The position numbers were made by a program, and so were the translations under genes. This document shows, one piece after another, positions 12,418-31,532 of a stretch of 48,037 nt of DNA. The stretch is from contig CAYUTE010000008.1 of assembly GCA_964447545.1 (NCBI GenBank), positions 1 through 48,037 on the forward strand, read 5' to 3'. Position 1 is the stretch's first letter, and each line of letters begins with the position of its first letter. Below the pieces are notes generated by a model. The model was not told where the DNA came from, did no database searches, and saw nothing but the letters and a program-made list of their open reading frames with translations. This DNA comes from an uncultured Eubacteriales bacterium (GTDB lineage Bacteria; Bacillota; Clostridia; Oscillospirales; Acutalibacteraceae).

Positions 12418-12446
12418 ATATTATACTTAATTTTTGATATTGTCAA
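12418..12446 (-). promoter_or_regulatory. Candidate sigma-A promoter of the thrS T-box leader, lying in the last codons of the upstream ylbJ-like gene
   Basis: Minus strand: TTGACA (12441-12446), 17 nt, TAATAT. Alternatively 15 nt, then TATAAT at 12420-12425. Confidence 0.55.
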
Positions 12447-13614
12447 CACTATAATTTTTTTTAATTTTTTTATTGCAAAATTTATTCGATACTACCGGAT
12501 GTTTGAAAACCCTAACACTTGCCGTGAAGAATATACATAATATTAGTAAAAGCAAACTGCTTGTGGGGAAAATGCCGGGTTGCGGTTTGTGCGAAACTTT
12601 AAATGCGGTATAGGTTTGTATGCAAATTTCTTCGTTCTTGAAAATTATTAGAGAAAGCAAAACAGAAATTATTCCGTTTAAAACTCTATAACAAAAAAAC
12701 TTTTTATGACTGAATTTTGTTTTACTAAGCGCCGAAATAACTTGCATATGGCCACAAATACCCCCAAAGCCTATAATCCAAGATATTAGCCAAAGAGGTG
12801 CTTTTAATTCGGCCGATTTTAAGCAGCCTTGAGTTATTTCGAGAAATCCCGCAAAAAATACTTTTAAATAATTGATAATCAATTGATTGGGCAAAAGATT
12901 ATTTATAAGAAATTCGATTGCCCAAAAATTGTTTATAATACTTGTTATAGCGAAAAATGCTACAATTACAGCGCATATGATTATTATAGATTCGCATGCA
13001 TATTGGCAAGAATCTATAAATAACTCGCTAATAGAAAAATTGTAATTTGAATTTGTTTCTTTACCCGAATAAATATTATTTTTATTTATTCTTTCATTAA
13101 CTGCACTTATTAAAGCGATTATTAAAGAAGAAAAAACTTGAATTAAAAATAGCCAAACTCCGATTTTTTGATTTTTTAGTATCGTATTCCCCAGCGTTGT
13201 TATTATAAATCCGGGTCCGGCATTAACGCAAAAACTCATTAATCTATTTACTTGTTTTGAATCGATTTTCTTTTCTTTATAAAGTTCATTTACACAATAT
13301 GCCCCCACCGAGTATCCGCCAATTATGCTCATTAAGATAGTAGGGAATGTGTACCCCGGCATATAAAACAAGAAGTTTATGGGCTTTTCTAAAATTTTTG
13401 ATAATTTATTTGCTATTCCGGATTTTATTATTATCGATGATATTATCATAAACGGGAACATCGAGGGTATGACTATATTTATACAACAGGAAATACCATT
13501 TAATATTCCGTATCTTATACCGGTAGAAAAATTTAAAATACATACGCAAGAAAATGCTAATGTTATTAAAAGAAGTGTGATTTTTATTTTGTTTTTGACT
13601 CCTGATTTTATCAA
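12427..13614 (-). CDS. ylbJ: Polytopic membrane protein, YlbJ-like (sporulation integral membrane protein / nucleoside-recognition-domain family)
   Basis: 395 aa with about 10 hydrophobic segments. The length and pattern recall YlbJ. The family assignment is from recall of sequence character and sporulation-gene context, not a search. Confidence 0.55.
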   Translation of the reverse strand: MIKSGVKNKIKITLLLITLAFSCVCILNFSTGIRYGILNGISCCINIVIPSMFPFMIISSIIIKSGIANKLSKILEKPINFLFYMPGYTFPTILMSIIGGYSVGAYCVNELYKEKKIDSKQVNRLMSFCVNAGPGFIITTLGNTILKNQKIGVWLFLIQVFSSLIIALISAVNERINKNNIYSGKETNSNYNFSISELFIDSCQYACESIIIICAVIVAFFAITSIINNFWAIEFLINNLLPNQLIINYLKVFFAGFLEITQGCLKSAELKAPLWLISWIIGFGGICGHMQVISALSKTKFSHKKFFCYRVLNGIISVLLSLIIFKNEEICIQTYTAFKVSHKPQPGIFPTSSLLLLILCIFFTASVRVFKHPVVSNKFCNKKIKKNYSVDNIKN

Positions 13615-17593: not shown

Positions 17594-17764
17594 ATGGCTG
17601 TAGATTTTGCTAATAATAAAGAAAAAAGCTGGCAAAAATTTATTTCAACAGGCAGTGTTTTAGATTACTTAAACTATTCATATAACAATAAAGAAATATT
17701 TTTTAAAAATCTTGGAGAAACGTTTAAAGATGCGAATAAAAGGGATAGTTATAAGAAAGATTAA
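17594..17764 (+). CDS. yqzL: YqzL-like small protein
   Basis: 56 aa. WQKFISTGSVLDYLNY resembles the YqzL family, and its position between era and recO matches Bacillus. ATG at 17594 lies 8 nt after AGAAGG. It overlaps the recO start. Confidence 0.45.
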   Translation: MAVDFANNKEKSWQKFISTGSVLDYLNYSYNNKEIFFKNLGETFKDANKRDSYKKD

Positions 17765-18470
17765 TTTAAGTAGTGATAATAATCTTGTGAATATTTTTAC
17801 ACAGGATATGGGTGTCATTTCAGCTATAGTCCCTTGTAACCGTGGTAGGAACAAAGGGAGGCTTTCTGCACTCTCGGTGTTATCTTATTGCGATTTTTCG
17901 CTTTTTGAGAATCGCTCGGGGTATATTGTTAATGATGCGGAAATTCTTAATGTTTTTTGGAATATAAAGAACGATATAAAATCGTTGACCATATCGCAAT
18001 ATTTATGCGAGTTATGTTTTGCTCTTTCTTGTGAAAACGATTTGTCCCAAGATTTTTTTAGACTTTTTTTAAATTCTCTTTTTTATATTTCAAAAGGTAT
18101 TAAATCTCCGGAATTTGTAAAATTGATTTTTGAAATTAGATCAAGTTCGTTGTGTGGATATATGCCAGACATAGTTTGTTGTGATAAATGCGGGAAATAC
18201 GAAGATGAAAATATGTATTTCGATTTGAAATCCGGCAAGCTCTTTTGTGAAAATTGTGCAAAAGAGTGTGGAGATTTTTGTGTTTCGTTAAGTCTTGGAA
18301 TGGTTAAGGCTTTGCGTCATATTGTTTATTCGCCTATTGAAAAATTGTTTTTATTTAATCTTTCAGAGAAAGCGCTGAAAATCCTGAACGAATTATCTGA
18401 AAAATATATTGTTTACCATGTGCAATCGGATTTCAAAAGTCTGAAATTTTACAACGAGGTATGTTTATAG
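17730..18470 (+). CDS. recO: DNA repair protein RecO
   Basis: MRIKGIVIRK... OB-fold N-terminus and zinc motif CDKCGK...CENC. ATG at 17730 lies 10 nt after GGAGAA. The ORF track begins at a TTG at 17712. Confidence 0.85.
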   Translation: MRIKGIVIRKINLSSDNNLVNIFTQDMGVISAIVPCNRGRNKGRLSALSVLSYCDFSLFENRSGYIVNDAEILNVFWNIKNDIKSLTISQYLCELCFALSCENDLSQDFFRLFLNSLFYISKGIKSPEFVKLIFEIRSSSLCGYMPDIVCCDKCGKYEDENMYFDLKSGKLFCENCAKECGDFCVSLSLGMVKALRHIVYSPIEKLFLFNLSEKALKILNELSEKYIVYHVQSDFKSLKFYNEVCL

Positions 18471-19202
18471 AACCAAATTTATGAGTTTTAATATATTGCA
18501 AGTTAAGAAACACATTATTAAGCCGACGACTGTAGGTAATATAAAAGCTACGATAGTCCACTTTATACTGTTTGTTTCTTTTTTTATTGTTAAACACGTG
18601 GTTCCGCACGGAAAGTGCATAAGCGAAAACATCATTGTGCAAATCGCTGTTATATAAGTCCAGCCATGAGAAACAAGGAGTTCTTTTAATTCAAATAAAG
18701 ATTCTGTTTCCATTATGCTGCCGGTACACATATAGCACATTATTATTATTGGGAATACTATTTCGTTTGCAGGGAACCCCAGTATAAACGCCATTAGTAT
18801 TACGCCATCGAGCCCTATCAATTTGGCAAAAGGGTCTAAAAATTGTGCGCAGTGCATCAGAACGCTTATATCATTTATTTTTATGTTTGCCATAAGCCAT
18901 ATTACTAATCCTGCAGGCGCCGCTACTGCTACCGCTCTGCCTAGCACGAAAATTGTTCTGTCGGCGATTGATCTTATCAGTATTTTGCCTATTTGAGGCT
19001 TTCTATATGGTGGGAGTTCCAATATAAATGATGAGGGTTCGCCTTTAAGCAATGTTACTGATAGTAGTTTTGATGTTAAAAATGTAACCACAAGCCCTAA
19101 AAGTATGAACATTGTGAGTATAGCCGCAGATATAAAAGAGCTGGCTCCTAAAAAATTTGAACCTAAAAAGAACATTGAAATTATTGAAATAAGCAGAGGG
19201 AA
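18465..19202 (-). CDS. feoB: feoB 3' segment (C-terminal membrane part of ferrous iron transporter B); split gene with no start signals of its own
   Basis: The frame is open from 19202 (FPLLISIISMFFLGS...). It contains LELPPYRKP and GFPANEIVFPIIIM, typical of the FeoB C-terminal Gate/nucleoside-recognition region. It continues exactly where the 28950..30386 fragment stops being FeoB-like. No SD precedes the internal Met at 19175. Confidence 0.85.
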   Translation of the reverse strand, partial: FPLLISIISMFFLGSNFLGASSFISAAILTMFILLGLVVTFLTSKLLSVTLLKGEPSSFILELPPYRKPQIGKILIRSIADRTIFVLGRAVAVAAPAGLVIWLMANIKINDISVLMHCAQFLDPFAKLIGLDGVILMAFILGFPANEIVFPIIIMCYMCTGSIMETESLFELKELLVSHGWTYITAICTMMFSLMHFPCGTTCLTIKKETNSIKWTIVAFILPTVVGLIMCFLTCNILKLINLVL

Positions 19203-19220
19203 TACACAGTTTAAACATGG
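19186..19220. other. Left junction (attL-like) of the feoB-intervening segment
   Basis: Plus strand: GCAGAGGG (feoB side), AAT core (19201-19203), then element arm TACACAGTTTAAACAT (19203-19218). Octamer CAGTTTAA is at 19207-19214, 4 nt from the AA core. Confidence 0.6.
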
Positions 19221-19226
19221 AAAGTT

Positions 19227-20567
19227 TTATTTAAAATATATTTTTAATGCTTCTCCATCCCATACGATTTCTTTTATAGTGCTATTTATAAATTCTTGCT
19301 TAATGTTTATTGGAGTTTTATCAAAAAAATCTTCGTGTTTTAAATACGGCATTATTTTTTCTAATTTTTTGCTTTTAGACTGAGATAAAAGTTTTTTAAC
19401 GCAACCGGTGAATACTTCTTTATCGACCTTTACACCGTTAAGATTTTTACATTGGCAAAAATTTAAACCTTTGTATATTTTATTGCTACAAATATAGTCG
19501 AAGCAAAATTTGCTTTTTGTATTTCTGATCTTAGTTAACATTTTGCCACCACATTTTTTGCATTTTATATATCCGGAAAGTATAGAATATTTTTCGGATT
19601 TTTTATTATGGGATTTATTTTTAGATATGTTAGATATGATTTTTTGAGTTTTAATCCAATTGCGCCCCGATATTATTCCGGTGTGTGTTCCAACTGATAT
19701 AATCCATTTTGAGTAATCGTTCGTACTTGCACAGTTTTTTTGATAGTGATATTTATTGTAAGAAAAAACCCCGAATTTATCGCTCCAATTGTTTTCGGTA
19801 AAACATATATCGGCATTTACTTTCTTAAAAAAATTAAAAGCATCTTTGTCTGCGATGCAATAAATAGGGTTGCGCAGTATTTTTTTTATTCCGGTGATTG
19901 AAAAATTCTTTAAGTTTGAATTTGGCTTTTCTAGATATCTTTTTACTTCCGAAAATGATTGTGTTTTAAGAAATATAGAATAAATTATTTTTATGTTGTC
20001 TATTTTTGATTCATCGGTTCTTAGATTAAATTTGTGTTTGACTTTGCCATACGAGTCTTTGGTAGTGATTTTAACCGATTTTAATCCATAAGGTGTTGTA
20101 CCGCCTAGCCACTGGGCGTTTTTAGCAAGCATCATCATGTTGTCTTTTACACGTTCTGCTATTGTTTCTCGTTCTAACTGAGAAAATACTGAAGCTATGT
20201 ACATCATTGCTCTGCCAATTGGGACCGATGTATCAAATTGTTCCTTTATACAAACGAATGATATATTATAAGAAATTAATTTTTCTATTAAATTTGAAAA
20301 ATCATTTATATTGCGACTTATCCTATCAAGTTTATAGCAGATAATATATGAAAACATATTGTTTTTTAAATCAGACATCATTTTTTGAAATCCCGGTCGT
20401 TCTGTGTTTTTCCCAGAAAACCCTTCGTCTTTGTAAATTAATATATCTGATTTTTTCAAGTTTGGTATATGATTAAGAGCGTATTCTTGGCACATATTTA
20501 TCTGGTTTTCTGCCGATTCTCCTTTATCGGTAAATTTGGATTTTCTGCTGTATATTGCAACTTTCAT
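19227..20567 (-). CDS. Large serine recombinase (resolvase catalytic domain + recombinase domain + zinc ribbon)
   Basis: N-terminal IYSRKSKFTDKGESAENQ (catalytic Ser context), YKLDRISRN, GRAMMYIASVFSQLERETIAERV. Zinc ribbon YIKCKKCGGKM...FCQC. 446 aa. Confidence 0.9.
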   Translation of the reverse strand: MKVAIYSRKSKFTDKGESAENQINMCQEYALNHIPNLKKSDILIYKDEGFSGKNTERPGFQKMMSDLKNNMFSYIICYKLDRISRNINDFSNLIEKLISYNISFVCIKEQFDTSVPIGRAMMYIASVFSQLERETIAERVKDNMMMLAKNAQWLGGTTPYGLKSVKITTKDSYGKVKHKFNLRTDESKIDNIKIIYSIFLKTQSFSEVKRYLEKPNSNLKNFSITGIKKILRNPIYCIADKDAFNFFKKVNADICFTENNWSDKFGVFSYNKYHYQKNCASTNDYSKWIISVGTHTGIISGRNWIKTQKIISNISKNKSHNKKSEKYSILSGYIKCKKCGGKMLTKIRNTKSKFCFDYICSNKIYKGLNFCQCKNLNGVKVDKEVFTGCVKKLLSQSKSKKLEKIMPYLKHEDFFDKTPINIKQEFINSTIKEIVWDGEALKIYFK

Positions 20568-20650
20568 TTGCAGATTTGTTCTCCTAATAATAAATATAAC
20601 TAATGTTCTACATCTAGATATATTGTGTTATTTGGCGTTTTTATGCAAAC

Positions 20651-20700
20651 AAATATCCCCACTGCTTTCCGTAGTTTGAATAGCAGTGGATATTGTTTTT
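20651..20700 (-). terminator. Hairpin separating fhs from the recombinase gene (works in either direction)
   Basis: Stem ATATCCCCACTGCT / AGCAGTGGATAT (20653-20666 / 20682-20693) with T-rich tracts on both sides. It lies 31 nt downstream of the fhs stop. Confidence 0.6.
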
Positions 20701-20730
20701 AGATTTTTGTTATAGCTTTTTATTTATTGT

Positions 20731-22398
20731 TTAGAACAGTCCTGAAATTTCTCCGTTTTTATTTATGTCAATGTTTTCGGCAGCAGGGTGTAGTGGAAGC
20801 CCCGGCATTCTTAATATGTTGCCCATAATAACAACTATGTATCCGGCACCATTTGAAAGATAAATGTTTTTTACTGTTACGGTAAAGTCTGATGGTGCTC
20901 CTAATTTTTGTGGGTCGTCAGATAGAGAATATTGAGTTTTTGCTACGCAAATAGGCAAGTTGGTTTTTCCTATATTTTCGATTTTTAATATATCTTTTTC
21001 TGCTTGCGGGGTATAGTATACATCTTTTGCGTGATAAATCTCTTTTGCAACTTTCTCTATTTTTTCTTTAATAGGAATATTAAGAGGGTAGATGGGGGAA
21101 AAGTTTTCCGGCTCATCACAAGCTTTTATTACGTCTTTAGCAAGTTCTTTGCCGCCTTCGCCACCTTTAGCAAACACTTCTGATACTGAAATTTTGCAGT
21201 TTAATTTTTTACAAAGCTCTTTTACTATATTTATTTCATCAGTAGTGTCTGTTTGAAATTTATTTATGGTTACAACAACAGGTACTCCGTATTTTTTCAT
21301 ATTTAAAATGTGCGATTTAAGATTACAAATACCTAATTTAAGAGCTTCTATATTTTCATTCTTTAAATTTTCTAATTTTTCTTTACCGTTGTATTTAAGT
21401 GCTCTTATTGTTGCAACTATAACGATACATGAAGGTTTTAAATCTGCTAATCTGCATTTAATATCTAAAAACTTTTCTGCACCTAGGTCGGCGCCGAACC
21501 CGGCTTCTGTGATGCAGTAATCTCCAAGTTTTAACGCAAGCTTTGTTGCCCTTACTGAATTGCATCCGTGTGCGATGTTTGCAAACGGTCCGCCGTGCAT
21601 TATTACCGGCGACTCTTCGATTGTTTGAACAAGATTTGGCTTTATTGCCTCTTTAAGTAGTGTGGCCATAGCACCTTGTATATTTAAATCTTTTGCATAT
21701 AGAGGATTCCCGCTATAATCATAAGCAATTAAAATTTCCCCAAGTTTTAATTTTAAATCTTCTAAATTTTCTGCCATACAGAGTATTGCCATTATTTCTG
21801 TTGCAACAGTTATTACAAAGCCATCTTCACGTGGGAATCCGTTAATTTCTCCACCAAGTCCTACTACAATATTTCTAAGCGCACGGTCGTTTATATCTAG
21901 ACAGCGTTTTACCAAAATTCTTCGTGGATCTATTTTAATTTTATTTCCTTGATGAATATGGTTGTCTATTACAGCGCACAGAAGATTGTTTGCAGCTGTG
22001 ATTGCATGCATATCTCCGGTAAAATGCAGGTTTATATCTTCCATAGGTAGCACTTGCGAATATCCGCCACCTGTTGCGCCTCCTTTAATTCCAAAAACCG
22101 GTCCTAAAGATGGTTCTCTTAGTGCGATTACGGTTTTTTTACCAAGCGAGTTCAGAGCTTGACCTAATCCTATTGTAATTGTAGTTTTGCCTTCTCCGGC
22201 AGGAGTAGGGTTAACCGCTGTTACCAGTACTAGTTTGCCGTCTTTTTTATTTTTAGATTTTTCAAAAACTTGTTCCGATATTTTAGCCTTATATTTACCG
22301 TAGTTTTCTATATCCTCTGCATAAAGTCCTAGTTTCTCTGCTATTTTAATTATAGGTTTAATATCTGCTTTTTGAGCGATTTCAATATCTGAGAGCAT
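20731..22398 (-). CDS. fhs: Formate--tetrahydrofolate ligase
   Basis: 555 aa. [11 protein letters not shown]..., nucleotide loop [14 protein letters not shown], full-length FTHFS pattern. Confidence 0.95.
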
Positions 22399-22418
22399 AT
22401 CTTATTACCTCCTGAAGA

Positions 22419-23624
22419 TTATTTTAAGAGTTTTTGAATTACCTTGTATATGTTTTTTAAGCAATCTGATTTATCGAATTTTTGACAGTTGAGTTTCATG
22501 GCATTTAGTCTTTTAGGGTCGGTTAATAAATTTTCTATAATCTTTATATCATACTTTCCACCGGTTAATCTAACTGCCATATTGTTTTTTACTAAAAAGT
22601 TGGCGTTTTCTTCTTCTTGGCCCGGTATTGCGTTAAAAAGTGCCATAGGCAAGTTGCAAGCTAATGCTTCGCTTACAGTCAGTCCTCCGGGTTTAGTGAT
22701 TATTAAATCAGATGATTGCATATATTTGCTTACTTCATTTGTAAAGTATATTACTTTGGTCTTTTTACGATTATCTTTATTATCAAAACTCAATTTTTTT
22801 GGTTTTTTTATTAATCTTAATTTTTTTAAATTTAAATGTTTTAGGATGAATTTTCTTTTTTTGATTTCTTCTCCAGAAGCTAGCATACGTATGTTATTAT
22901 ATAATTTTTGGTTTTTGCCGGTTATTATTATTATTTGTACATCTGTTTTTAATGATTGTAATTTTTCATAAATTTCTGCTATGTTTGCAATACCGCCGCA
23001 TCCTGCCATCATCAAAATTGTGGGGACGCCCTGAGAAAACCCTATGCTTTTTAAGACTTCTTCTTTGTTTTTAGGAGAGTGAAAGTCTTCGTTGATGGGT
23101 ATTCCAAACGGATAAATTATTTTTGGATCCACGCCGATTTCTTCCATAGGTTTTATCATTTGATCATTTGCAACTATATAGGCATCGGTTTTATCGTTAA
23201 TCCATGTCCTGTGCGGTGCGTAGTCTGTCATTACGCATACAAGTGGCACAGTTATCTTTCCGGCTGATTTTAAGCTTGAAATCATTTCCGCCGCAAATGG
23301 GTGAGTTACGATTATAATATCCGGATTAAAATCATTAATACTGGGCAATAGCTTTTTACTTATAGTGCCGTTAACAGTAGCAACCAATTTACTTACAGCC
23401 GCTTGGTTATTTGATGTATCATACATTAATTTCCAAAGATGTTTATGGCTTTTGGCTATGTGACCATATATTTCAATAACCGTTTTATTTAATATACGAC
23501 TGATGGTTTCTATGGTGTCTAGCATTTTTACTTCGGCACCATTGTTTTTTAGATATTCGTTTATTGCTTTTGCGGCACTTATATGCCCGCCGCCTGTTTT
23601 AGCTGATAATATAATAACTTTCAC
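22419..23624 (-). CDS. GT28/MGDG-synthase-family glycolipid glycosyltransferase (UgtP-like)
   Basis: N-terminal SAKTGGGH, C-terminal DLIITKPGGLTVSEALA...PGQEEENA. It has a Lys-rich insertion of roughly 35 aa between the two Rossmann halves. GTG start 6 nt after AGAGG. Confidence 0.75.
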   Translation of the reverse strand: MKVIILSAKTGGGHISAAKAINEYLKNNGAEVKMLDTIETISRILNKTVIEIYGHIAKSHKHLWKLMYDTSNNQAAVSKLVATVNGTISKKLLPSINDFNPDIIIVTHPFAAEMISSLKSAGKITVPLVCVMTDYAPHRTWINDKTDAYIVANDQMIKPMEEIGVDPKIIYPFGIPINEDFHSPKNKEEVLKSIGFSQGVPTILMMAGCGGIANIAEIYEKLQSLKTDVQIIIITGKNQKLYNNIRMLASGEEIKKRKFILKHLNLKKLRLIKKPKKLSFDNKDNRKKTKVIYFTNEVSKYMQSSDLIITKPGGLTVSEALACNLPMALFNAIPGQEEENANFLVKNNMAVRLTGGKYDIKIIENLLTDPKRLNAMKLNCQKFDKSDCLKNIYKVIQKLLK

Positions 23625-23625
23625 T

Positions 23626-24573
23626 TTATACCTCTGGAATATTATTATTTTCGCCGAGTATAGTTTTTCCTGTTAGCTTGTTTCCTCTTGTAAAGTCTGC
23701 TGCAGACATACGTTTTTTACCCGCTATTTGAACTTCTTCAAGCTCTAAACTTGTATTATTCCCACAGCCGATAATTAGGGGATTGACGCTTATAATTTGA
23801 CCGGGATTACAAATTCTTTTATCGCTTATTTTAGCTTTATAAATTTTGAAAAGTGTTTTGTTTAATGCTGTATACGCTATAGGCCACGGGTTTAGCCCCC
23901 TTATTAAATTGTTGATTTCAGTAGCAGATTTAATCCAATCTATTTTTCCGAGCGATTTATCTAATGGTGGAGAAAATGTCGCTTCTGACTCATTTTGTTT
24001 TATGCGCTTTATAGTGCCTTGTTCAATCTCCGATATGGTTTTAATAAGAAGGTCTGCGCCTATTTGTGAAAGACGCAATTTTAATTCTTCAGACGTTTCA
24101 TTTTCATATATGGGAGTTTTTTCTTGTAGAAGGATATCGCCTGTATCTAAGCCCTCGTTCATAAACATGGTAGTAATTCCGGTTACGCTGTCGCCATTTA
24201 TTATGCTCCATTGTATAGGCGCTGCTCCTCTATACTTTGGCAAAAGCGAGCCATGGACGTTAATGCAACCGTATTTAGGGAAATCTAATATATTTTTTTT
24301 CAATATTTTTCCGTATGCAACAACTACTATTAATTCTGGATTTAATTTTTTTACTATATCAAAAACTTCCGGGTCTTTCAAATTTTCAGGTTGATAAACT
24401 GCAATACTGTTTTCCTCTGCATAAATTTTTACAGGTGGAGGAGTTATTATCATTTTCCGTCCTTGTGGCTTGTCCGGTTTTGTGAATACTGCGCATATCT
24501 CGTGATTATTTTTTATTAGTGCTTTTAAAGATGGAACTGCGAATTCAGGAGTCCCCATAAAAAGTATTTTCAA
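23626..24573 (-). CDS. fmt: Methionyl-tRNA formyltransferase
   Basis: MKILFMGTPEFAVPSL, HGSLLPKYRGAAPIQWSIING, C-terminal OB-like domain. Confidence 0.95.
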   Translation of the reverse strand: MKILFMGTPEFAVPSLKALIKNNHEICAVFTKPDKPQGRKMIITPPPVKIYAEENSIAVYQPENLKDPEVFDIVKKLNPELIVVVAYGKILKKNILDFPKYGCINVHGSLLPKYRGAAPIQWSIINGDSVTGITTMFMNEGLDTGDILLQEKTPIYENETSEELKLRLSQIGADLLIKTISEIEQGTIKRIKQNESEATFSPPLDKSLGKIDWIKSATEINNLIRGLNPWPIAYTALNKTLFKIYKAKISDKRICNPGQIISVNPLIIGCGNNTSLELEEVQIAGKKRMSAADFTRGNKLTGKTILGENNNIPEV

Positions 24574-24754
24574 ATTTATTTCACCTCAGAGCGTTCAAGC
24601 TGTTTCTTTTGCTTTTTAAAATATATAAATTATGATATTACATTTTAGAAGTATTTTCAATAATCCTGTATGTATAGCCGGTTCTCTATTTATAATAAGC
24701 TCAATATGTGATATAATTATTTTTAGAGTTTTAAAAAAACCGAGGGGGATTAGT

Positions 24755-25822
24755 GTGTTTAAACGTCTTGAAAATATACAAAAAAGATATAATGAAGTTA
24801 ACGAAGCGTTGTGTGATACAAAGATTTTATCTGACCAGCAAGAATATAAAAAATTTATGAAAGAGTATAAAAATCTAACTCCTATAATAGAAAAATACGC
24901 AGAATATAAAAAAGAAGAAGCTAGCGCTCTAGAGGCAAAAGAGTTACTATCGGACAATGATTGTGACAAAGAATTTAAAGATATGGCACAAGCTCAGCTT
25001 GACTCTTCAAAAGAAAATATTCAAAAAATTTCTGAAGAACTTAAAATCTTGCTTTTGCCCAAAGACCCCAATGATGAAAAAAATGTAATTATGGAGATAC
25101 GTGGCGGAGCAGGCGGAGAAGAAGCAGCTTTGTTTTCTAGTGTTCTGTTCAGAATGTATAATATGTATTCTCAGGCTAAACACTGGAAAGTAGAAATTCT
25201 CAATGCAAACGAAACACAGCTTGGTGGATATAAAGAGATAAGTTTTATGGTTTCCGGAGAAGGAGCATATTCAAAGTTAAAATTTGAAAGCGGTGTTCAC
25301 AGAGTTCAAAGAGTGCCTGATACAGAAACTCAAGGGCGTGTTCATACGTCAACGGTTACAGTAGCAGTTTTGCCGGAGGCAGATGATGTTGAAATTGAGA
25401 TAAATCCAAGTGATTTACAAATAGATACATATAGATCCGGCGGAGCAGGTGGCCAACACGTAAATAAAACTGAATCGGCAATAAGAATAACTCATATTCC
25501 TACAGGTCTTGTAGTAGAATGCCAAGATGAGCGCAGCCAGTATAAAAACAAAGATAAAGCTATGAAGGTTCTAAAATCAAGATTACTTGACTTAAAACGT
25601 TCTGAACAAGAATCTGCTGTTGCTCAGGAACGTCGTTCACAAGTTGGAACGGGTGACCGTTCGGAGCGTATAAGAACATATAATTATCCGCAGAGCAGAG
25701 TTACAGACCATAGAATAGGTTTAACACTTTATAGACTTGAAGATGTTCTAAATGGCGATTTAGATGAAATTATTGACAGTTTAATAACAGCGGATCGTGC
25801 AGCAAAACTTGCAGGAAATTAA
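24755..25822 (+). CDS. prfA: Peptide chain release factor 1
   Basis: GTG start 6 nt after GAGGGGGA gives a 355-aa protein starting [15 protein letters not shown]. It has the GGQ motif [12 protein letters not shown] and [14 protein letters not shown]. The ORF-track start at 24632 adds a non-homologous extension. Confidence 0.95.
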
Positions 25823-25851
25823 ATTTATCTATTTGGTGAAAGGAAATAAAT

Positions 25852-26862
25852 TTGAAAACTAAGATTTTAAATTCAAATCAAACGGATATTGCGGCAGATA
25901 TTTTAAAATCCGGTGGATTAGTTGCAATACCGACTGAAACAGTTTATGGTTTGGCCGCAAGCGCATACAAACCGCAGTCTATAAAAAATATTTTTATTGC
26001 CAAAGGTCGCCCTATGGATAACCCTTTAATAGTCCATATCGCTGATATAAAAAATATTTATGAAGTGGTTTCAGAGTTCCATGAAACAGCTCAAAAATTG
26101 GCAGAAAAATTTTGGCCCGGCCCTCTTACTATGATATTACCTAAAAATTCTAAAATCCCAAACGAAGTCTGCGCAGGGCTTAGCTCTGTGGCTGTTAGAT
26201 TCCCATCAAATAAAATAGCTCAAGAAATAATTTTGAAAACGGGAGAACCTCTTGTTGCTCCGTCGGCCAATCTTTCGGGTAAGCCGAGCCCGACCAAGTT
26301 CGAACACGTTTTTGAAGATTTAAATAGTAAAATTGATGCGATTGTAGACGGTGGAGATTGTACTGTGGGGCTTGAGTCAACCGTTGTTTCGCTTTTGGAA
26401 GAAATTCCAAGAATACTAAGACCCGGGGCTATAAGCGCTGACGATATAAAAAACACTGTTGGATGCGTTAAAATTGACGATGCAGTGTTTAAAAAATCAA
26501 AAGCCGGAGAAAAAGTTCTTTCACCCGGAATGAAATATAAGCATTATTCTCCAAAAACTCCGGTAACTATGATTATTAGTAGCGCAGAGAAATATTCCGA
26601 ATTTATAAATTCAAAGAAAAACGATAATATAATAGCACTTTGCTTTAATGAAGACATTCAAAACATAAATGTGCCATATGTATCATATGGAGGGTCTGAT
26701 GACGTTAAAACGCAGGCTCAAAAATTATTTGGTGCGTTAAGAGATGCCGATAAACTTCAAGGAACTCATATTTATGCCCATTATAAGGATGTTAATGGAT
26801 TTAGTGTTGCAGTTTATAATCGGCTGGTAAGGGCTGCGGGATTTGATATTATAAATCTATAA
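25852..26862 (+). CDS. tsaC: L-threonylcarbamoyladenylate synthase (TsaC/YwlC/Sua5 long form)
   Basis: YrdC domain IPTETVYGLAA...SANLSGKPS, plus a Sua5 C-terminal domain. TTG start after GAAAGGAA. Confidence 0.9.
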   Translation: MKTKILNSNQTDIAADILKSGGLVAIPTETVYGLAASAYKPQSIKNIFIAKGRPMDNPLIVHIADIKNIYEVVSEFHETAQKLAEKFWPGPLTMILPKNSKIPNEVCAGLSSVAVRFPSNKIAQEIILKTGEPLVAPSANLSGKPSPTKFEHVFEDLNSKIDAIVDGGDCTVGLESTVVSLLEEIPRILRPGAISADDIKNTVGCVKIDDAVFKKSKAGEKVLSPGMKYKHYSPKTPVTMIISSAEKYSEFINSKKNDNIIALCFNEDIQNINVPYVSYGGSDDVKTQAQKLFGALRDADKLQGTHIYAHYKDVNGFSVAVYNRLVRAAGFDIINL

Positions 26863-26872
26863 GAAAAGGGGT

Positions 26873-27454
26873 GTGTGCAGCATAGATATAAAATCAAAGA
26901 AACGAATAATTAGCTTAGTTTTTGTTTTATCTCTAGTACTTTTTGGATTGATTGTTATATATAAAGGTTCCAAGTCCATATTTAAATATTTTTATCCTAT
27001 AAACTACGAGGATATAGTAACTGAAGCTTCAAATAAGTATGGCGTTGAAAAAGAGTTAATATATGCTATAATTAAGTGTGAAAGCGGATTTGATAAATCA
27101 GCACATTCGCATGCAGATGCGGTGGGGTTGATGCAAATAACCCCAGGAACTTTTAAATGGCTTAGGGATAAATCGAAAGATGATTTAAGCAGCTATTCTG
27201 ATATTTCTGATCCGCGTACAAATATCATGTGCGGAACATATTTGATTTCGTTTTTAAGAAATAGGTATAAAAATTTAGATGTTGCGCTTTGTGCGTACAA
27301 TGCAGGTATTACCACGACTGATAAATGGATTAGAACAAATAAAATATCTAAGGATAATATGGATTATTCTGAAATTCCATATAATGAAACCAAAAATTAT
27401 GTAAAGCGTGTTAAACGTGCCAGAGAGATTTATAAAAAATTATATTTTAGTTGA
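26873..27454 (+). CDS. Membrane-anchored lytic transglycosylase (SLT domain)
   Basis: N-terminal TM, catalytic CESGFD, GLMQI, AYNAG. The start codon is uncertain because the SD is very close to the GTG at 26873. Confidence 0.75.
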   Translation: MCSIDIKSKKRIISLVFVLSLVLFGLIVIYKGSKSIFKYFYPINYEDIVTEASNKYGVEKELIYAIIKCESGFDKSAHSHADAVGLMQITPGTFKWLRDKSKDDLSSYSDISDPRTNIMCGTYLISFLRNRYKNLDVALCAYNAGITTTDKWIRTNKISKDNMDYSEIPYNETKNYVKRVKRAREIYKKLYFS

Positions 27455-27477
27455 TTTTAAAGAAAGGAACTGGATTT

Positions 27478-28881
27478 ATGAACACAAACAAAAATTCAAG
27501 CTCAGAACTTAAAGAAAAACTGTTTTTAAATAAGAAAAACGGTGCAAACCGCATAGGTGAATCAGAACTTAAAAAGAGTTTTGATTTTGCAGAAGGATAT
27601 AAAGATTTTTTGAACACTTGCAAAACAGAAAAAGAATGTGTGCGTTATGCAATTAATGAAGCTAAAAAATTAGGATTTGAAGAATTTGACAGCTCTAAAA
27701 AATATAAAGCAGGAGATAAAGTATATAAAATAAATAGAGATAGAAATATAGTTCTGGCTATTATCGGAAAAGACGGCACCAAAAACGGAATAAATTTAGC
27801 TGTTGCTCATGCCGATGCTCCACGCCTAGACCTTAAGCCAAATCCATTATTAGAAAACAATGAGCTTGCAATACTTAAAACTCATTATTATGGAGGAATT
27901 AAAAAGTATCAGTGGACAGTTCTTCCGCTTTCTTTACACGGCCGTATAGTAAAACGTGATGGAAGCTATGTTGATGTTTGTATTGGTGAAAATGATGATG
28001 AACCGTGCTTTTGCGTGACTGATTTGTTACCACATCTTGCTCGTGAGCAAATGTCTAAAAAGATGTCTGAAGGAATACTTGGAGAAAATTTAAATCTATT
28101 AGTTGGTAGTATTCCATTCGCTGATGCTGAGGGTTCTGAATTAGTTAAGCTCAATATTTTAAAAATATTGAATGATAAATATGGCATAGTTGAAGAAGAT
28201 CTTATATCTTCTGACCTTGAGCTTGTTCCCGCTTATAAAGCTAAAGATTTAGGGTTTGACAGGAGCTTAATTGGGGGATACGCTCACGATGATAGATCTT
28301 GTTGCTACCCATGTTTAAGAGCTATACTAGAGTCTAAAGATCCGAAAAAAACTACTGTGGTCATGTTAACGGATAAGGAAGAAATCGGAAGCGACGGAAA
28401 TACAGGTTCTCAATCTAAGTTTTTAGAGTATTTTATAGCTGACCTAGCAGATCAAGATGGAGTAAATTTACGTGATGTATTGACAAAAACCAAATGTCTT
28501 TCAGCAGATGTAAATGCAGCATACGACCCTACGTACCCTTCAAGTTTTGAACCCGCCAACAGTTCTTATATAAATAGGGGAGTAGTTGTTACAAAATATA
28601 CCGGAAGTGGCGGAAAATACGGGACATCTGATGCTACGGCCGAATTTACCGGTGAGGTCTGCAAGATTTTTAATGATAATGATGTTTTGTGGCAAAGCGG
28701 CGAGCTTGGAAAAGTAGATAATGGTGGCGGCGGAACCATTGCAAAATACATTGCCAATTTGAATGCAGATGTTATAGATGTTGGTGTTCCTGTATTGTCT
28801 ATGCACGCACCGTTTGAGGTGATTTCTAAAATAGATTTATATATGACGTTTAAAGCAATATTCTCATTTTTTAAAGCATAG
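27478..28881 (+). CDS. M18-family aminopeptidase
   Basis: VAHADAPRLDLKP, GYAHDDRSCCY, DKEEIGS, MHAP motifs of M18 aminopeptidases. ATG at 27478 lies 8 nt after AAAGGAA. Confidence 0.8.
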   Translation: MNTNKNSSSELKEKLFLNKKNGANRIGESELKKSFDFAEGYKDFLNTCKTEKECVRYAINEAKKLGFEEFDSSKKYKAGDKVYKINRDRNIVLAIIGKDGTKNGINLAVAHADAPRLDLKPNPLLENNELAILKTHYYGGIKKYQWTVLPLSLHGRIVKRDGSYVDVCIGENDDEPCFCVTDLLPHLAREQMSKKMSEGILGENLNLLVGSIPFADAEGSELVKLNILKILNDKYGIVEEDLISSDLELVPAYKAKDLGFDRSLIGGYAHDDRSCCYPCLRAILESKDPKKTTVVMLTDKEEIGSDGNTGSQSKFLEYFIADLADQDGVNLRDVLTKTKCLSADVNAAYDPTYPSSFEPANSSYINRGVVVTKYTGSGGKYGTSDATAEFTGEVCKIFNDNDVLWQSGELGKVDNGGGGTIAKYIANLNADVIDVGVPVLSMHAPFEVISKIDLYMTFKAIFSFFKA

Positions 28882-28927
28882 GTCTATTAAATGGATCAAA
28901 TATAAAAAATAATTAAATATTAGAAAT

Positions 28928-28959
28928 AAAAGCTCTTAAAATAGGGCTTTTATTTTTTT
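28928..28959 (+). terminator. Rho-independent terminator after the aminopeptidase gene, just inside the right end of the element
   Basis: Stem AAAGCTC/GGGCTTT (28929-28935 / 28944-28950, one G-U) followed by TATTTTTTT. Confidence 0.65.
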
Positions 28960-30386
28960 GCAATATTAAACTGCGCTAATCTGCCGTTGCAAGGAACAAA
29001 ATTATTTGTTAAAAGTGCAATTAATCTTTCTCTTGGCGAATCTATTATTCTGCATCCAATAACGCCACAGGCGTTACAACCAAACCCCATACAAGTGGTT
29101 AGCGCTTGCTTTCCGTGAGCTCCGCATTTATTGAATGAATTATCTAAACTAAAGGCTATTCTTGGCAAATATCCTACGTCTTCCAAGAATGTAAATAGCG
29201 GGAAAAATATGGCCATAGGCGGTAGCATTACTGAAACCACCCAAGCAAGTGTTCTGTACATACCTTCAACAAAAAGGCCGTTAATCCACTGCGGGCAAGA
29301 GTGCGATATTAGAATAGCTGTTAATTTTTCCTGAATATTAAATAGCACCGATGCTATAATTTCAGATGGGTAGTTTGCACCTGATATTGTTATCCAAAAT
29401 ATCCCCATAAGTAGGAGTATCATTATAGGTATTCCTGTTGTTTTGGAGGTTAAAACGTGGTCAATTTTTCTATCTTTTTTGTCATATGATTTGTTTTCAA
29501 TATGTACGCATAATCGGCTTATTTGTTCAGATTTGTTTATTAAAGACTTTACTATGATTTTTTTAATTGATTCTTGAGTTATGTTTTTTTTATTTAAAAT
29601 ATCTTTTTCTGATTCTATTATTTCTTTTACTGACGGATTGGTGTAAATTTCATTAAACTCATTTTTTATTTTTCCCTCTAGTTTTTTATCGTTTTCTAGA
29701 ATTTTAAGTGCGTGCCAGCGTGAGTTTGTGTTTTTTGATATAAAAGGGGAAATCGCAGCAGAAACATTTTCTAAGCAAGAATTTAAAGGGTCTGGATAGT
29801 TTATTGTTGTTCCAAATGTTTTGCGTTTTTTTAGAGCTACATCGTTTACAGCTTGCATAAGTTTTTTTATTCCTTGTTTTTTTCGGGCGTTTGTGTATAC
29901 AACGGGTACTCCAAGTTGTAATGAAAGTTCGTCTAAATCTATATAAATCTTTTTTTTCTTAGCTTCATCGATTAAGTTTACGCATATTACAACGTTTTTT
30001 GTCATTTCTAATATTTGTAAGGCTAAGTTTAGATTTCTTTCTAGACATGTTGCATCCATTACTACTATTATTGCATCTAGGTTTGAAAAACAAATGAAAT
30101 CTCTTGCTATTTCTTCTTCCGGCGAATTAGACATCAATGAGTATGTGCCGGGAATGTCTGTAATTTTAAAAGTATTGCCGTTGTAACAGTATTTTCCTTG
30201 AGCACACTCCACAGTTTTTCCGGGCCAGTTTCCTGTGTGCTGTTTCATGCCGGTAAGAACATTAAATACTGTACTTTTACCAACGTTGGGGTTGCCTGCA
30301 ATGGCAATGTTTTTAAAATTAATATTTTTGATTGTTTTTTTATTAAAATATTTAATTTTAGAAATAGAACTTTTTATAATGTTCAT
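28950..30386 (-). CDS. feoB: feoB 5' segment (G-domain, helical domain and first membrane segments). FeoB homology ends at 28980; the last 9 codons and the stop are element-encoded.
   Basis: G1 GNPNVGKST, G3 DIPGTYSL, NLID, membrane part up to ...RERLIALLTNNFVPCNGR. Then comes a non-FeoB tail LAQFNIAKK and the stop. Confidence 0.9.
   Translation of the reverse strand: MNIIKSSISKIKYFNKKTIKNINFKNIAIAGNPNVGKSTVFNVLTGMKQHTGNWPGKTVECAQGKYCYNGNTFKITDIPGTYSLMSNSPEEEIARDFICFSNLDAIIVVMDATCLERNLNLALQILEMTKNVVICVNLIDEAKKKKIYIDLDELSLQLGVPVVYTNARKKQGIKKLMQAVNDVALKKRKTFGTTINYPDPLNSCLENVSAAISPFISKNTNSRWHALKILENDKKLEGKIKNEFNEIYTNPSVKEIIESEKDILNKKNITQESIKKIIVKSLINKSEQISRLCVHIENKSYDKKDRKIDHVLTSKTTGIPIMILLLMGIFWITISGANYPSEIIASVLFNIQEKLTAILISHSCPQWINGLFVEGMYRTLAWVVSVMLPPMAIFFPLFTFLEDVGYLPRIAFSLDNSFNKCGAHGKQALTTCMGFGCNACGVIGCRIIDSPRERLIALLTNNFVPCNGRLAQFNIAKK
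28962..28995. other. Right junction (attR-like) of the feoB-intervening segment
   Basis: Plus strand: element arm AATATTAAACTGCGCT (28962-28977), AAT core (28978-28980), then the feoB side TCTGCCGTTGCAAGG. TTAAACTG at 28966-28973 is the inverted copy of the left-arm octamer at the same 4-nt distance from the core. Confidence 0.6.
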
Positions 30387-30440: not shown

Positions 30441-30683
30441 TTAAATCTCATAAACTATTATGTCTTTGATGTCATCGTTCCTGAGTGCGATCACTGCTCC
30501 GCGTATTAAGTAAGCAGTTAAATTTTTTGAAGGGTCATTATGTAGAGCTTTAATTTTTGTGCCTTCCACTAAGCCCAAATCCATAAATCTACGCAACAAA
30601 AAATCATCTTTTGCACTAACTTTAATTATTTTATACTCGTGATTGAGTTTGCAATTGTTTAGACGTACAAATATAGTCTTCAA
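30441..30683 (-). CDS. feoA: FeoA-family protein
   Basis: 80 aa, SH3-like FeoA pattern (RRFMDLGLVEGTKIKAL...GAVIALRNDD), directly upstream of feoB. TTG start. Confidence 0.8.
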   Translation of the reverse strand: MKTIFVRLNNCKLNHEYKIIKVSAKDDFLLRRFMDLGLVEGTKIKALHNDPSKNLTAYLIRGAVIALRNDDIKDIIVYEI

Positions 30684-30703: not shown

Positions 30704-30724
30704 CATAATTTTTAACAAATTATG
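30704..30724. promoter_or_regulatory. Perfect 8-5-8 palindrome in the feoAB upstream region (candidate operator)
   Basis: CATAATTT-TTAAC-AAATTATG, 21-41 nt upstream of the feoA start. The half-sites are AT-rich ATAAT-type. Confidence 0.4.
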
Positions 30725-30745
30725 CATTTGCTCAATTTTTTGATA

Positions 30746-30836: not shown

Positions 30837-31490
30837 TTAGTCTTCGGTTTCACTTTCACTTGCGCTATCGCTTTTTGAAGTTACTTGGGGTTTAGTTGTT
30901 TCTTTAGGTTGCTCTTCTTTAGGTTGTTCTTCTTTAGGTTGTTCTTCCGTAGGTTGTTCTTCCGTAGGTTGTTCTTCTAGAACAACAGCTGAATCATCAG
31001 CTGAATCATCAAAAAGAGCAGGAAAATGTTTTTTACAATAATCTTTGGTTAACTTCTTAGAAGCTTCTTCATCGGCTTTCATTACCTGATATGCGAACCA
31101 TTGTTCAGTAATTATTCTGTTTGCCCAACGTCCATTGCCGCTTTTTTTGGTTGAATGCAAACGTAAAATTCTGCTTTCGTTTTTTTCAAATATTACTTCT
31201 GGTTCTTGAGTTATTTCACCGGTTTGAGCAAATACTAATTTTTTCTGTACAACAGGTGTTAAACTGCCGTGGGCTACTTGATTCCAACTTTGTGCTGCTT
31301 CTCTTACTTTTTCATCGCTGCTGTGTGCTTTAAACAAATTGAAAACTGCGCGAGGTACGTTAGGTGTGGCTGCAACAACCATAGTAGTTCCTTCTACTGC
31401 GGCTAATGTTCCTATTACTGCTGCAGATATTACTAATGCTGTTGTTCCAACCTTAAATTTTACTGTTTTTACAATATTGGATACTGACAT
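30837..31490 (-). CDS. Hypothetical membrane-anchored protein with C-terminal EEQP(T/K) pentapeptide repeats and an acidic Ser-rich tail
   Basis: It has an N-terminal hydrophobic segment (TTALVISAAVIGTLAAV) and no family I recognise. The second ATG (31490) is preferred, 10 nt after AAGGA. The ORF track starts at 31499. Confidence 0.5.
   Translation of the reverse strand: MSVSNIVKTVKFKVGTTALVISAAVIGTLAAVEGTTMVVAATPNVPRAVFNLFKAHSSDEKVREAAQSWNQVAHGSLTPVVQKKLVFAQTGEITQEPEVIFEKNESRILRLHSTKKSGNGRWANRIITEQWFAYQVMKADEEASKKLTKDYCKKHFPALFDDSADDSAVVLEEQPTEEQPTEEQPKEEQPKEEQPKETTKPQVTSKSDSASESETED
30902..30976. repeat. Tandem repeat, 5 x 15 bp, in-frame (encodes EEQPT/EEQPK)
   Basis: Units CTTTAGGTTGCTCTT / CTTTAGGTTGTTCTT x2 / CCGTAGGTTGTTCTT x2, head to tail. 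Confidence 0.9.
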
Positions 31491-31532
31491 TCTTAACATT
31501 TCCTTTCAAACAAAAATTTGTAAAACAAATTA

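Follow-up and report, generated by a model that had tools for sequence, protein, structure and literature searches.

A stretch of 48,037 nt from an uncultured Eubacteriales bacterium of the family Acutalibacteraceae (contig CAYUTE010000008.1 of assembly GCA_964447545.1), referred to here as the window, contains a 9,777 bp insert (19203-28979) between two in-frame halves of feoB. The insert has a gene for a large serine recombinase (LSR) at one end, and the recombinase is its sole gene besides seven housekeeping genes, which include fhs, fmt, prfA and a Sua5/TsaC-type gene (Table 1). The chances appear about even that this segment is the intervening DNA of a sporulation-type gene rearrangement, of the skin/SPβ/gin kind, aimed at a late mother-cell feoAB. 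A more specific proposal is possible, though open to considerable doubt: that an LSR lacking the coiled-coil motif, independent of a recombination directionality factor (RDF) and under mother-cell control, excises essential translation genes (prfA, fmt and tsaC) and so rebuilds a sporulation-specific feoB, in an arrangement that has persisted while lineages diverged to the level of genera. If so, it would be the first programmed somatic excision in bacteria to remove essential core chromosome.

Read along the feoB sense strand, the 5′ side of the split runs ...AACGGCAGA-TT-AGCGCAGTTTAATATTGC and the 3′ side ...TTTAAACTGTGTA-TT-CCCTCTGCTT. In silico joining across the common TT gives an uninterrupted, in-frame FeoB of 714 aa (...NNFVPCNGR/FPLLISIISMFF..., the slash marking the join), with 60–70 % identity to many intact FeoBs over 96–100 % of the length. 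In its present state, the open reading frame (ORF) of the 5′ part ends 9 codons past the junction. The joined feoB would be expected to read ...TGCAACGGCAGATTCCCTCTGCTTATT... and the junction of the circle ...TTTAAACTGTGTATTAGCGCAGTTTAAT..., and the attP attachment (att) site can be reconstructed as TTAAACTGTGTA-TT-AGCGCAGTTTAA. Both element-side arms together form an imperfect palindrome around the TT (TTAAACTGTG / CGCAGTTTAA). No long direct repeats were found at the insert ends, where only low-complexity chance matches occur; this is expected for an LSR and, combined with the palindromic arms, is the signature of an LSR attP/attB pair. Among the loci searched (relatives are denoted by L and a number), the arm motif TAAAC[TC]G[CT]G is confined to the two junctions. 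The far, attL-side arm is identical at 24 of 28 positions between the window and L001, a Clostridia metagenome-assembled genome from SRR10912533, and the position of the TT crossover, at the feoB codons for ...NGR/FP..., is identical in all members of the recombinase family.

The recombinase has a resolvase catalytic domain (PF00239, E 2.5e-34) followed by Recombinase and zinc-ribbon domains (PF07508, PF13408). The catalytic serine, S10 in the motif YSRKS, is invariant in 55 sequences, and the Cys ligands of the zinc ribbon are likewise invariant. The best structural matches in Foldseek are the Bxb1, SPβ-type and φC31 integrases (E 1e-12 to 1e-15). In LSRs, synapsis and directionality are governed by a coiled-coil that is inserted into the zinc-ribbon domain. 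Alignment with relatives of 541 aa reveals a gap of 85–95 residues in the window enzyme following the zinc ribbon, and in its AlphaFold (AF2) model (pLDDT 81) no extended hairpin of helices is seen there, the helices at 378-394 and 420-430 being short. Judged from the gap, the model and the structural matches to LSR integrases, the missing segment is the coiled-coil motif. The window recombinase has 446 aa, and those of L001, L092, L004/L005 and L003 have 459–475 aa. Short forms of 456–475 aa are found in L001, L092, L004, L003, L002 and P0018, and the L002 recombinase does not lie in feoB; the presence of the short form at another site as well indicates a subfamily, not a one-off truncation. 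The closest phage integrases are 41 % identical to the window enzyme, which matches only an integrase family in PHROGs; the neighbours of related recombinases gave no PHROGs match. The LI integrase with its coiled-coil deleted loses directionality and carries out weak deletion on both PxB and LxR with no RDF (PMC5499577). The coiled-coil is essential in φC31 integrase (PMC10754689), so that a natural coiled-coil-less LSR may or may not be active.

Gene identities were assigned by Pfam and NCBIfam profile scans of the window ORFs, and curated NCBIfam cut-offs were exceeded by fhs, fmt, prfA, the TsaC/Sua5-type enzyme and the aminopeptidase. The scans bear out the cargo identities, and their coordinates, given in an initial annotation made from the sequence alone. 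They also agree with its statement that phage and conjugative-element genes are lacking, as no phage, conjugation, replication or toxin family was matched among the insert genes. Neither def nor prmC, the usual partners that it had reported as absent, was found in the 48-kb window.

Comparison with relatives identifies the cargo genes as the lineage's own orthologues and as native chromosome. In L009, on a 232-kb contig (ERZ27247193 k141_325536), ybeY-dgkA-era-recO is followed directly by fhs-GT28-fmt-(VanY)-prfA-sua5-SLT-M18, oriented as in the window and with neither a recombinase nor pieces of feoB; an intact feoA-feoB (L006) lies about 24 kb along the same contig. Nucleotide identity between the window and L009 is 67–72 % across the block and 67–68 % across era and recO. 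The fhs-GT28-fmt sub-block is collinear with L009, L010 and L001, and prfA-sua5-SLT-M18 is common to L001, L009, L010 and L011 and partly present in L093. In the last of these, sua5-SLT-M18 directly adjoins recR-ybaB-dnaX, an order that amounts to the right-hand neighbourhood of the window minus the 5′ part of feoB, feoA and the gene for a 220-aa protein. In G+C content, overall and at third codon positions, and in codon usage the block matches the other 37 window genes, and the recombinase gene falls within their range. It is the collinearity with L009, with divergence and composition like those of the flanks, that marks the cargo as native. Of the options raised in the initial annotation, capture of a chromosomal block now fits best, and extra paralogues are unlikely given the collinear native block; its distinction between this segment and the skin and SPβ elements holds, the cargo being native housekeeping genes.

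The block has not stayed constant. L001 (5391-6002), L009 (6483-7097) and L010 have, between fmt and prfA, a gene for a VanY-type D-Ala-D-Ala carboxypeptidase that is missing from the window, so the block has changed since divergence. In L011 (5822-7055), a BppU_N (phage baseplate-like) protein and a 95-aa ORF are encoded just upstream of prfA-sua5-SLT-M18, away from feoB, and the new neighbourhood of this sub-block may be mobile DNA. In the empty-site relative L007/L008, prmC occurs alone (2109-2969), without prfA, 7 kb upstream of an intact feoA-feoB; uncoupling of prfA and prmC is thus general in the group and not specific to the window. A phage, an integrative and conjugative element or an integrative mobilisable island was considered as the source of the segment and rejected in view of the housekeeping-only families, the flank-like composition and the 41 % identity of the closest phage integrase.

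The nested order is shared with other lineages. In L001 it reads feoB 5′ part, M18 ... fhs, recombinase, feoB 3′ part; this was the one relative recovered when species-genome contigs were scanned, and an exact look-up of the recombinase gave no match. It is seen in part in L092, from SRR33322312 (fhs-recombinase-feoB 3′ part-recO-era), and its presence in these independent assemblies shows that it is no assembly artefact. The recombinases are 53–56 % identical to that of the window, the 5′ part of feoB 65 % and the cargo proteins 55–81 %; a comparison of the window, L001 and L092 gave 64–81 % for the cargo proteins. A neighbour-joining tree of era, recO and the feoB 3′ part, rooted on the empty-site L007, has the form (window,(L009,(L092,L004))); in a second tree, of sua5, SLT and M18, the window stands apart, L001 joins L011 (84 %) and L009 joins L093 (92 %). 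The carriers of the nested arrangement (window, L001 and L092) do not form a clade, and L009, L011, L093 and L004 nest among them. On the simplest vertical reading, the arrangement predates the group and was subsequently lost or modified in L009, L093 and L011. With L009 placed in a group whose deeper and sister branches bear the nested arrangement, its state seems to have arisen by secondary loss and not to be ancestral.

The initial annotation had held that relatives with the same block at this position, no recombinase and an unsplit feoB elsewhere would imply a simple rearrangement history. L009/L006 is literally such a case, with the block by recO, no recombinase and feoB unsplit 24 kb away, but the trees make L009 look derived. 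No single LSR reaction turns the order recO, block, recR, with feoB elsewhere, into the nested form. The most economical path, in number of steps, would lead from an empty site (of the L007/L096 type) through integration of a recombinase-plus-block circle to later losses. L096, a probable genome-mate of L011, has an intact feoB next to recO. No att scars were found beside the housekeeping block in the recombinase-less genomes L009, L011, L093 and L096.

Ratios of non-synonymous to synonymous substitution (dN/dS, by NG86), which are rough values as dS is saturated, are 0.09 for the feoB 3′ part between the two split lineages L092 and L004, 0.10–0.13 for the recombinase, 0.14 for recO and 0.05 for era. 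The split feoB halves are 66–71 % identical to intact FeoBs, as the intact ones are among themselves, and for the 3′ part the identity to split orthologues is also 66–71 %. Purifying selection appears to act on both halves of feoB, on the recombinase and on the att arms. Low dN/dS, intact-like halves and conserved arms are not expected of a dead gene and an idle recombinase.

The window enzyme belongs to a large family, apparently undescribed, for which feoB is apparently a previously undescribed target; no paper on feoB with serine recombinases or intervening elements was found in the literature. A protein search yielded thousands of relatives at about 50 % identity, mostly of 541 aa, and these long forms are 50–55 % identical to the window enzyme. 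A metagenome scan for the family gave 80 loci, none with the housekeeping block; those with long forms (L012-L091) come from metagenomes of the gut, of fermentations and of other sources. In Clostridia the family occupies this one feoB codon nearly always: of the 57 long-form loci with enough downstream DNA, 43 have the feoB 3′ part directly downstream of the recombinase, and a further three have the 5′ part in convergent arrangement. In L069, L012, L014 and L052 the recombinase adjoins and converges on the 5′ part of feoB, so that the element interior is inverted relative to the att sites when compared with most loci. Complete long-form elements are 3–9 kb in size and carry accessory cargo, such as a LytTR response regulator, a GHKL kinase and two ABC transporters in L035 (2600-11700), an extracytoplasmic function (ECF) sigma factor in L059 and an NTase-HEPN pair in L069 (1-3483); L090 (6900-11700) is a further example.

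At the element end opposite the recombinase, nine loci share a conserved gene for a protein of 66–69 aa with no Pfam match (L035:2816-3025(-), L090:7004-7213(-), L069:251-451(-) and six others). In seven of the nine it is preceded, at -41 to -46, by GTAATAGG-N14-16-TCATAcAAT. This matches the Clostridium difficile σE pattern (-35 ATA, -10 CATAnnnT; PMC3789822) and hence resembles a σE promoter. By analogy with CD1234, SprB and GirX (PMC5025042, PMC4191935, PMC5595907), the encoded protein is a candidate directionality factor. The gene was not found in the complete elements of the window and L001, nor in the available parts of L092 and L004.

Several observations suggest a link with sporulation. 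Genes present in the window include yqfD and those for a spoIIAB-like anti-sigma kinase and a sigF-like sigma factor, and in relatives yabP-yqfD adjoins the corresponding recO cluster. The feoA-feoB genes of C. difficile (CD1518-CD1517) have a σK promoter, and their expression drops to 0.05 in a sigK mutant (PMC3789822). The pattern AC-N15-18-CATAnnnT occurs upstream of feoA in five of six relatives (L006, L007, L012, L052 and L090, as homologous AC-N16/17-CATAnnnT), against a background for σK-like motifs of 0.02–0.03 per 100 nt per strand. The upstream regions of the L001 and L092 recombinase genes share a σE-like GTAATAA-N14-TCATATAAT, and a σE-like pattern precedes the recombinase in 4/7 short forms versus 4/75 long forms. 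The σE and σK promoters of the window and its relatives are consensus matches and as such putative. The suggestion in the initial annotation that productive excision is confined to a terminal mother cell gains indirect support from the window's sporulation genes, the σK dependence of feoAB in C. difficile and the promoter motifs of relatives; it is plausible, although unproven. That the element is 'self-stabilising', as was also suggested, is speculation.

Under the proposed mechanism, an LSR element would have integrated at the fixed TT in feoB and become fixed in an ancestor of the lineage. Its accessory cargo and a gene for a small putative directionality factor would have been lost or replaced, leaving the native block fhs-GT28-fmt / prfA-sua5-SLT-M18 with the recombinase gene on one side and the far att arm on the other. 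In vegetative cells and the forespore the segment would stay integrated and feoB split. During sporulation, the recombinase without its coiled-coil would be expressed in the mother cell (from a σE-type promoter in the sister species), would recombine both junctions and would release a 9.8-kb circle, restoring a σK-type feoAB operon; control would thereby have shifted from an RDF to the recombinase itself. Because the mother cell is terminal and genes on the circle could still be transcribed, the location of prfA, fmt and tsaC on it would cost nothing, and the spore, as the germ line, would keep all three. The cargo would need no special role and would simply be tolerated, with vegetative excision strongly counter-selected.

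A number of points weigh against this proposal. Neither a same-species intact-feoB allele nor a circle junction was present in the collections searched, and among the retrieved proteins no intact FeoB is more than 76 % identical to any split lineage. No RDF candidate was found in the window element, and its recombinase is without the coiled-coil, which is essential in φC31 integrase (PMC10754689). The region upstream of the window recombinase has only a degenerate σE-like motif (AATAT-N15-CATTAGTT), and the -35 of the window feoA is an imperfect match to the sporulation consensus. That the host is a spore former we infer from a few genes only, and saturation of dS makes the selection estimates rough.

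Some of the same evidence, namely the lack of an RDF gene and a coiled-coil, the missing excised allele and the weak promoter matches of the window, would also suit an element that no longer moves, as would the loss of flanking pieces in L009, L093 and L011/L096. An LSR would have integrated in feoB, rearrangements would have enclosed essential genes, and excision, now lethal, would have ceased, with feoB permanently split and non-functional and the recombinase a leftover or otherwise employed. This is unlikely, since at least three or four lineages, 30–45 % divergent in protein sequence, have kept uninterrupted ORFs for the recombinase and for each half of feoB, with dN/dS of about 0.1; moreover, the non-coding att arms are conserved, and a dead half would not remain as intact-like as intact orthologues are mutually. 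Loss of directionality could alternatively have produced a reversible switch in vegetative cells, with the circle excised and re-integrated to turn feoB on and off (for example, on iron limitation) and loss of the circle killing the cell, which would stabilise the element. The lack of an RDF gene and the weak activity of the coiled-coil-deleted LI integrase on both PxB and LxR (PMC5499577) are consistent with this, and the intact feoB by recO in L096/L011, with the block elsewhere, suggests at least one germ-line excision with relocation. However, at every division one daughter would be left without a non-replicating circle and its prfA, fmt and tsaC, the motifs upstream of the L001 and L092 recombinases are σE-like and not σA-like, and the feoA promoters of relatives look σK-type. 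Such a switch is rated as distinctly improbable.

Two further explanations have very little to recommend them. The absence of def and prmC nearby might indicate that the cargo consists of dispensable extra copies on a horizontally mobile island, but the only such block visible in relatives is collinear with that of the window (on the same side of recO in L009 and of recR in L093), the divergence of the cargo equals that of the flanks and its composition is identical to theirs, and these genes occur in 0/80 other family loci; we give this almost no credence. Similarly slight is the probability that the two halves are translated separately and assembled into FeoB, with no DNA rearrangement. Both halves are conserved, and an ATG lies 9 codons into the 3′ part, but no Shine–Dalgarno sequence precedes this ATG in the window, L001, L004 or L092, its Met is conserved in intact FeoBs too, and the conserved recombinase and att arms would be left unexplained.

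Table 1. Features at and around the split feoB of the window
Feature	Position	Strand	Basis or remark
recO	17712-18470	+	ORF listing and family scans
feoB 3′ part (FeoB_C and second Gate domain)	18465-19202	-	Pfam PF07664, PF07670
Junction of element and feoB 3′ part (attR-like)	19177-19227	-	Crossover TT at 19202-19201; element-side arm TTTAAACTGTGTA
LSR, 446 aa	19227-20567	-	Pfam Resolvase, Recombinase, Zn_ribbon_recom
fhs terminator hairpin, then recombinase upstream region and ribosome-binding site	20568-20730	-	Sequence reading
fhs	20731-22398	-	911 bits vs cut-off 652
Monogalactosyldiacylglycerol (MGDG)-synthase/GT28 glycosyltransferase	22419-23624	-	Scores under equivalog cut-offs
fmt	23626-24573	-	TIGR00460, 336 vs cut-off 201
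prfA	~24755-25822	+	TIGR00019, 540 vs cut-off 423; GGQ motif present
Sua5/TsaC-type threonylcarbamoyl-AMP synthase	25852-26862	+	TIGR00057, 208 vs cut-off 123
SLT-domain protein (SLT transglycosylase)	26873-27454	+	Family scans
M18 aminopeptidase	27478-28881	+	PRK02256, 650 vs cut-off 529
feoB 5′ part (G domain, helical domain and first Gate domain), 478 aa	28950-30386	-	Pfam FeoB_N, FeoB_Cyto, Gate
Junction of feoB 5′ part and element (attL-like)	28955-29005	-	Crossover TT at 28979-28978; element-side arm AGCGCAGTTTAATATTGCAAAAAAA
feoA	30441-30683	-	Pfam PF04023
Putative σK-like promoter remnant at feoA	30717-30745	-	-10 CATAATTT kept; -35 TC vs AC in relatives
220-aa protein	30837-31499	-	Between feoA and recR

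The 3′ part of feoB converges on recO, with overlapping ORFs, and the G1, G3 and G4 motifs of the 5′ part can be read intact from the sequence. Within the insert, fhs-GT28-fmt are all on the minus strand (20731-24573) and prfA-sua5-SLT-M18 all on the plus strand (24755-28881); the prfA ORF as listed, from 24632, is over-extended, the conserved start lying near 24755. The divergent intergenic region between fmt and prfA (24574-24754) contains a σK-like match (ACTTCTAAAATGTAATATCATAATTT) 79 nt upstream of fmt, which may be due to chance. The 220-aa protein has no family match and carries C-terminal EEQPT/EEQPK repeats; its gene is missing from L093, where M18 abuts recR. Beyond it in the window the gene order is recR, ybaB, dnaX. 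A 395-aa membrane protein with a weak Gate domain (12427-13614, minus strand), which may be YlbJ-like, is encoded next to yqfD, and its gene is the only one in the window besides fmt with a clean σE/σK-like motif in the 150-nt upstream region.

To our knowledge, all described gene-intervening elements carry foreign DNA, whether prophages, prophage remnants or the gin island. Intervening DNA made up of the cell's own, probably essential genes would imply that a recombination module can outlive the mobile element, its content being free to drift. Should excision occur, its leakage into dividing cells would be expected to kill them, and confinement to the terminal cell would have to be strict; the locus would then be a natural proof of how tightly excision is so confined. 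The feoB-specific LSR family in gut Clostridia, with att sites readable from the junctions, is of interest as an integrase toolbox, and its natural coiled-coil-less branch bears on the control of LSR directionality. Ferrous-iron uptake would also be tied to late mother-cell development beyond C. difficile.

The long-form LSR family shares with the window the crossover TT in feoB and a related recombinase. It differs in keeping the coiled-coil, in the 66–69-aa gene with its σE-like promoter (nine loci that include the far end) and in its small accessory cargo. The nifD, fdxN (XisF) and hupL elements of cyanobacterial heterocysts are also alike in having non-phage cargo, and undergo programmed excision in a terminally differentiated cell; XisF is the best NCBIfam match of the window recombinase, far below threshold. 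The phylum and cell type are different, however, and XisF requires XisH and XisI. We know of no essential translation genes carried by heterocyst elements. The gin element in gerE of Bacillus cereus (PMC5595907) is a non-phage intervening element with an LSR (GirC), which indicates that intervening cargo need not be viral. It is an exogenous, low-GC island of 28.6 kb with 31 mostly unknown genes, three recombinases and the small RDF GirX (PMC5595907), whereas the cargo in the window is native in composition, has orthologues on the chromosomes of relatives and is probably essential. The vfbin and vrin elements are further members of the sporulation-specific class. In skin (sigK) and SPβ (spsM) of Bacillus subtilis and skinCd of C. 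difficile, as in the window, an LSR gene lies at one end of a gene-splitting segment; excision restores the gene precisely and in frame, as it would in the window, the hosts are spore formers, as the host of the window probably is, and the target in the window, too, is plausibly a late mother-cell gene. Those elements carry the cargo of (defective) prophages and use the RDF SprB or CD1234; the segment described here carries native housekeeping genes and no RDF, has a recombinase without the coiled-coil and is predicted, from sequence, to be excised from feoB.

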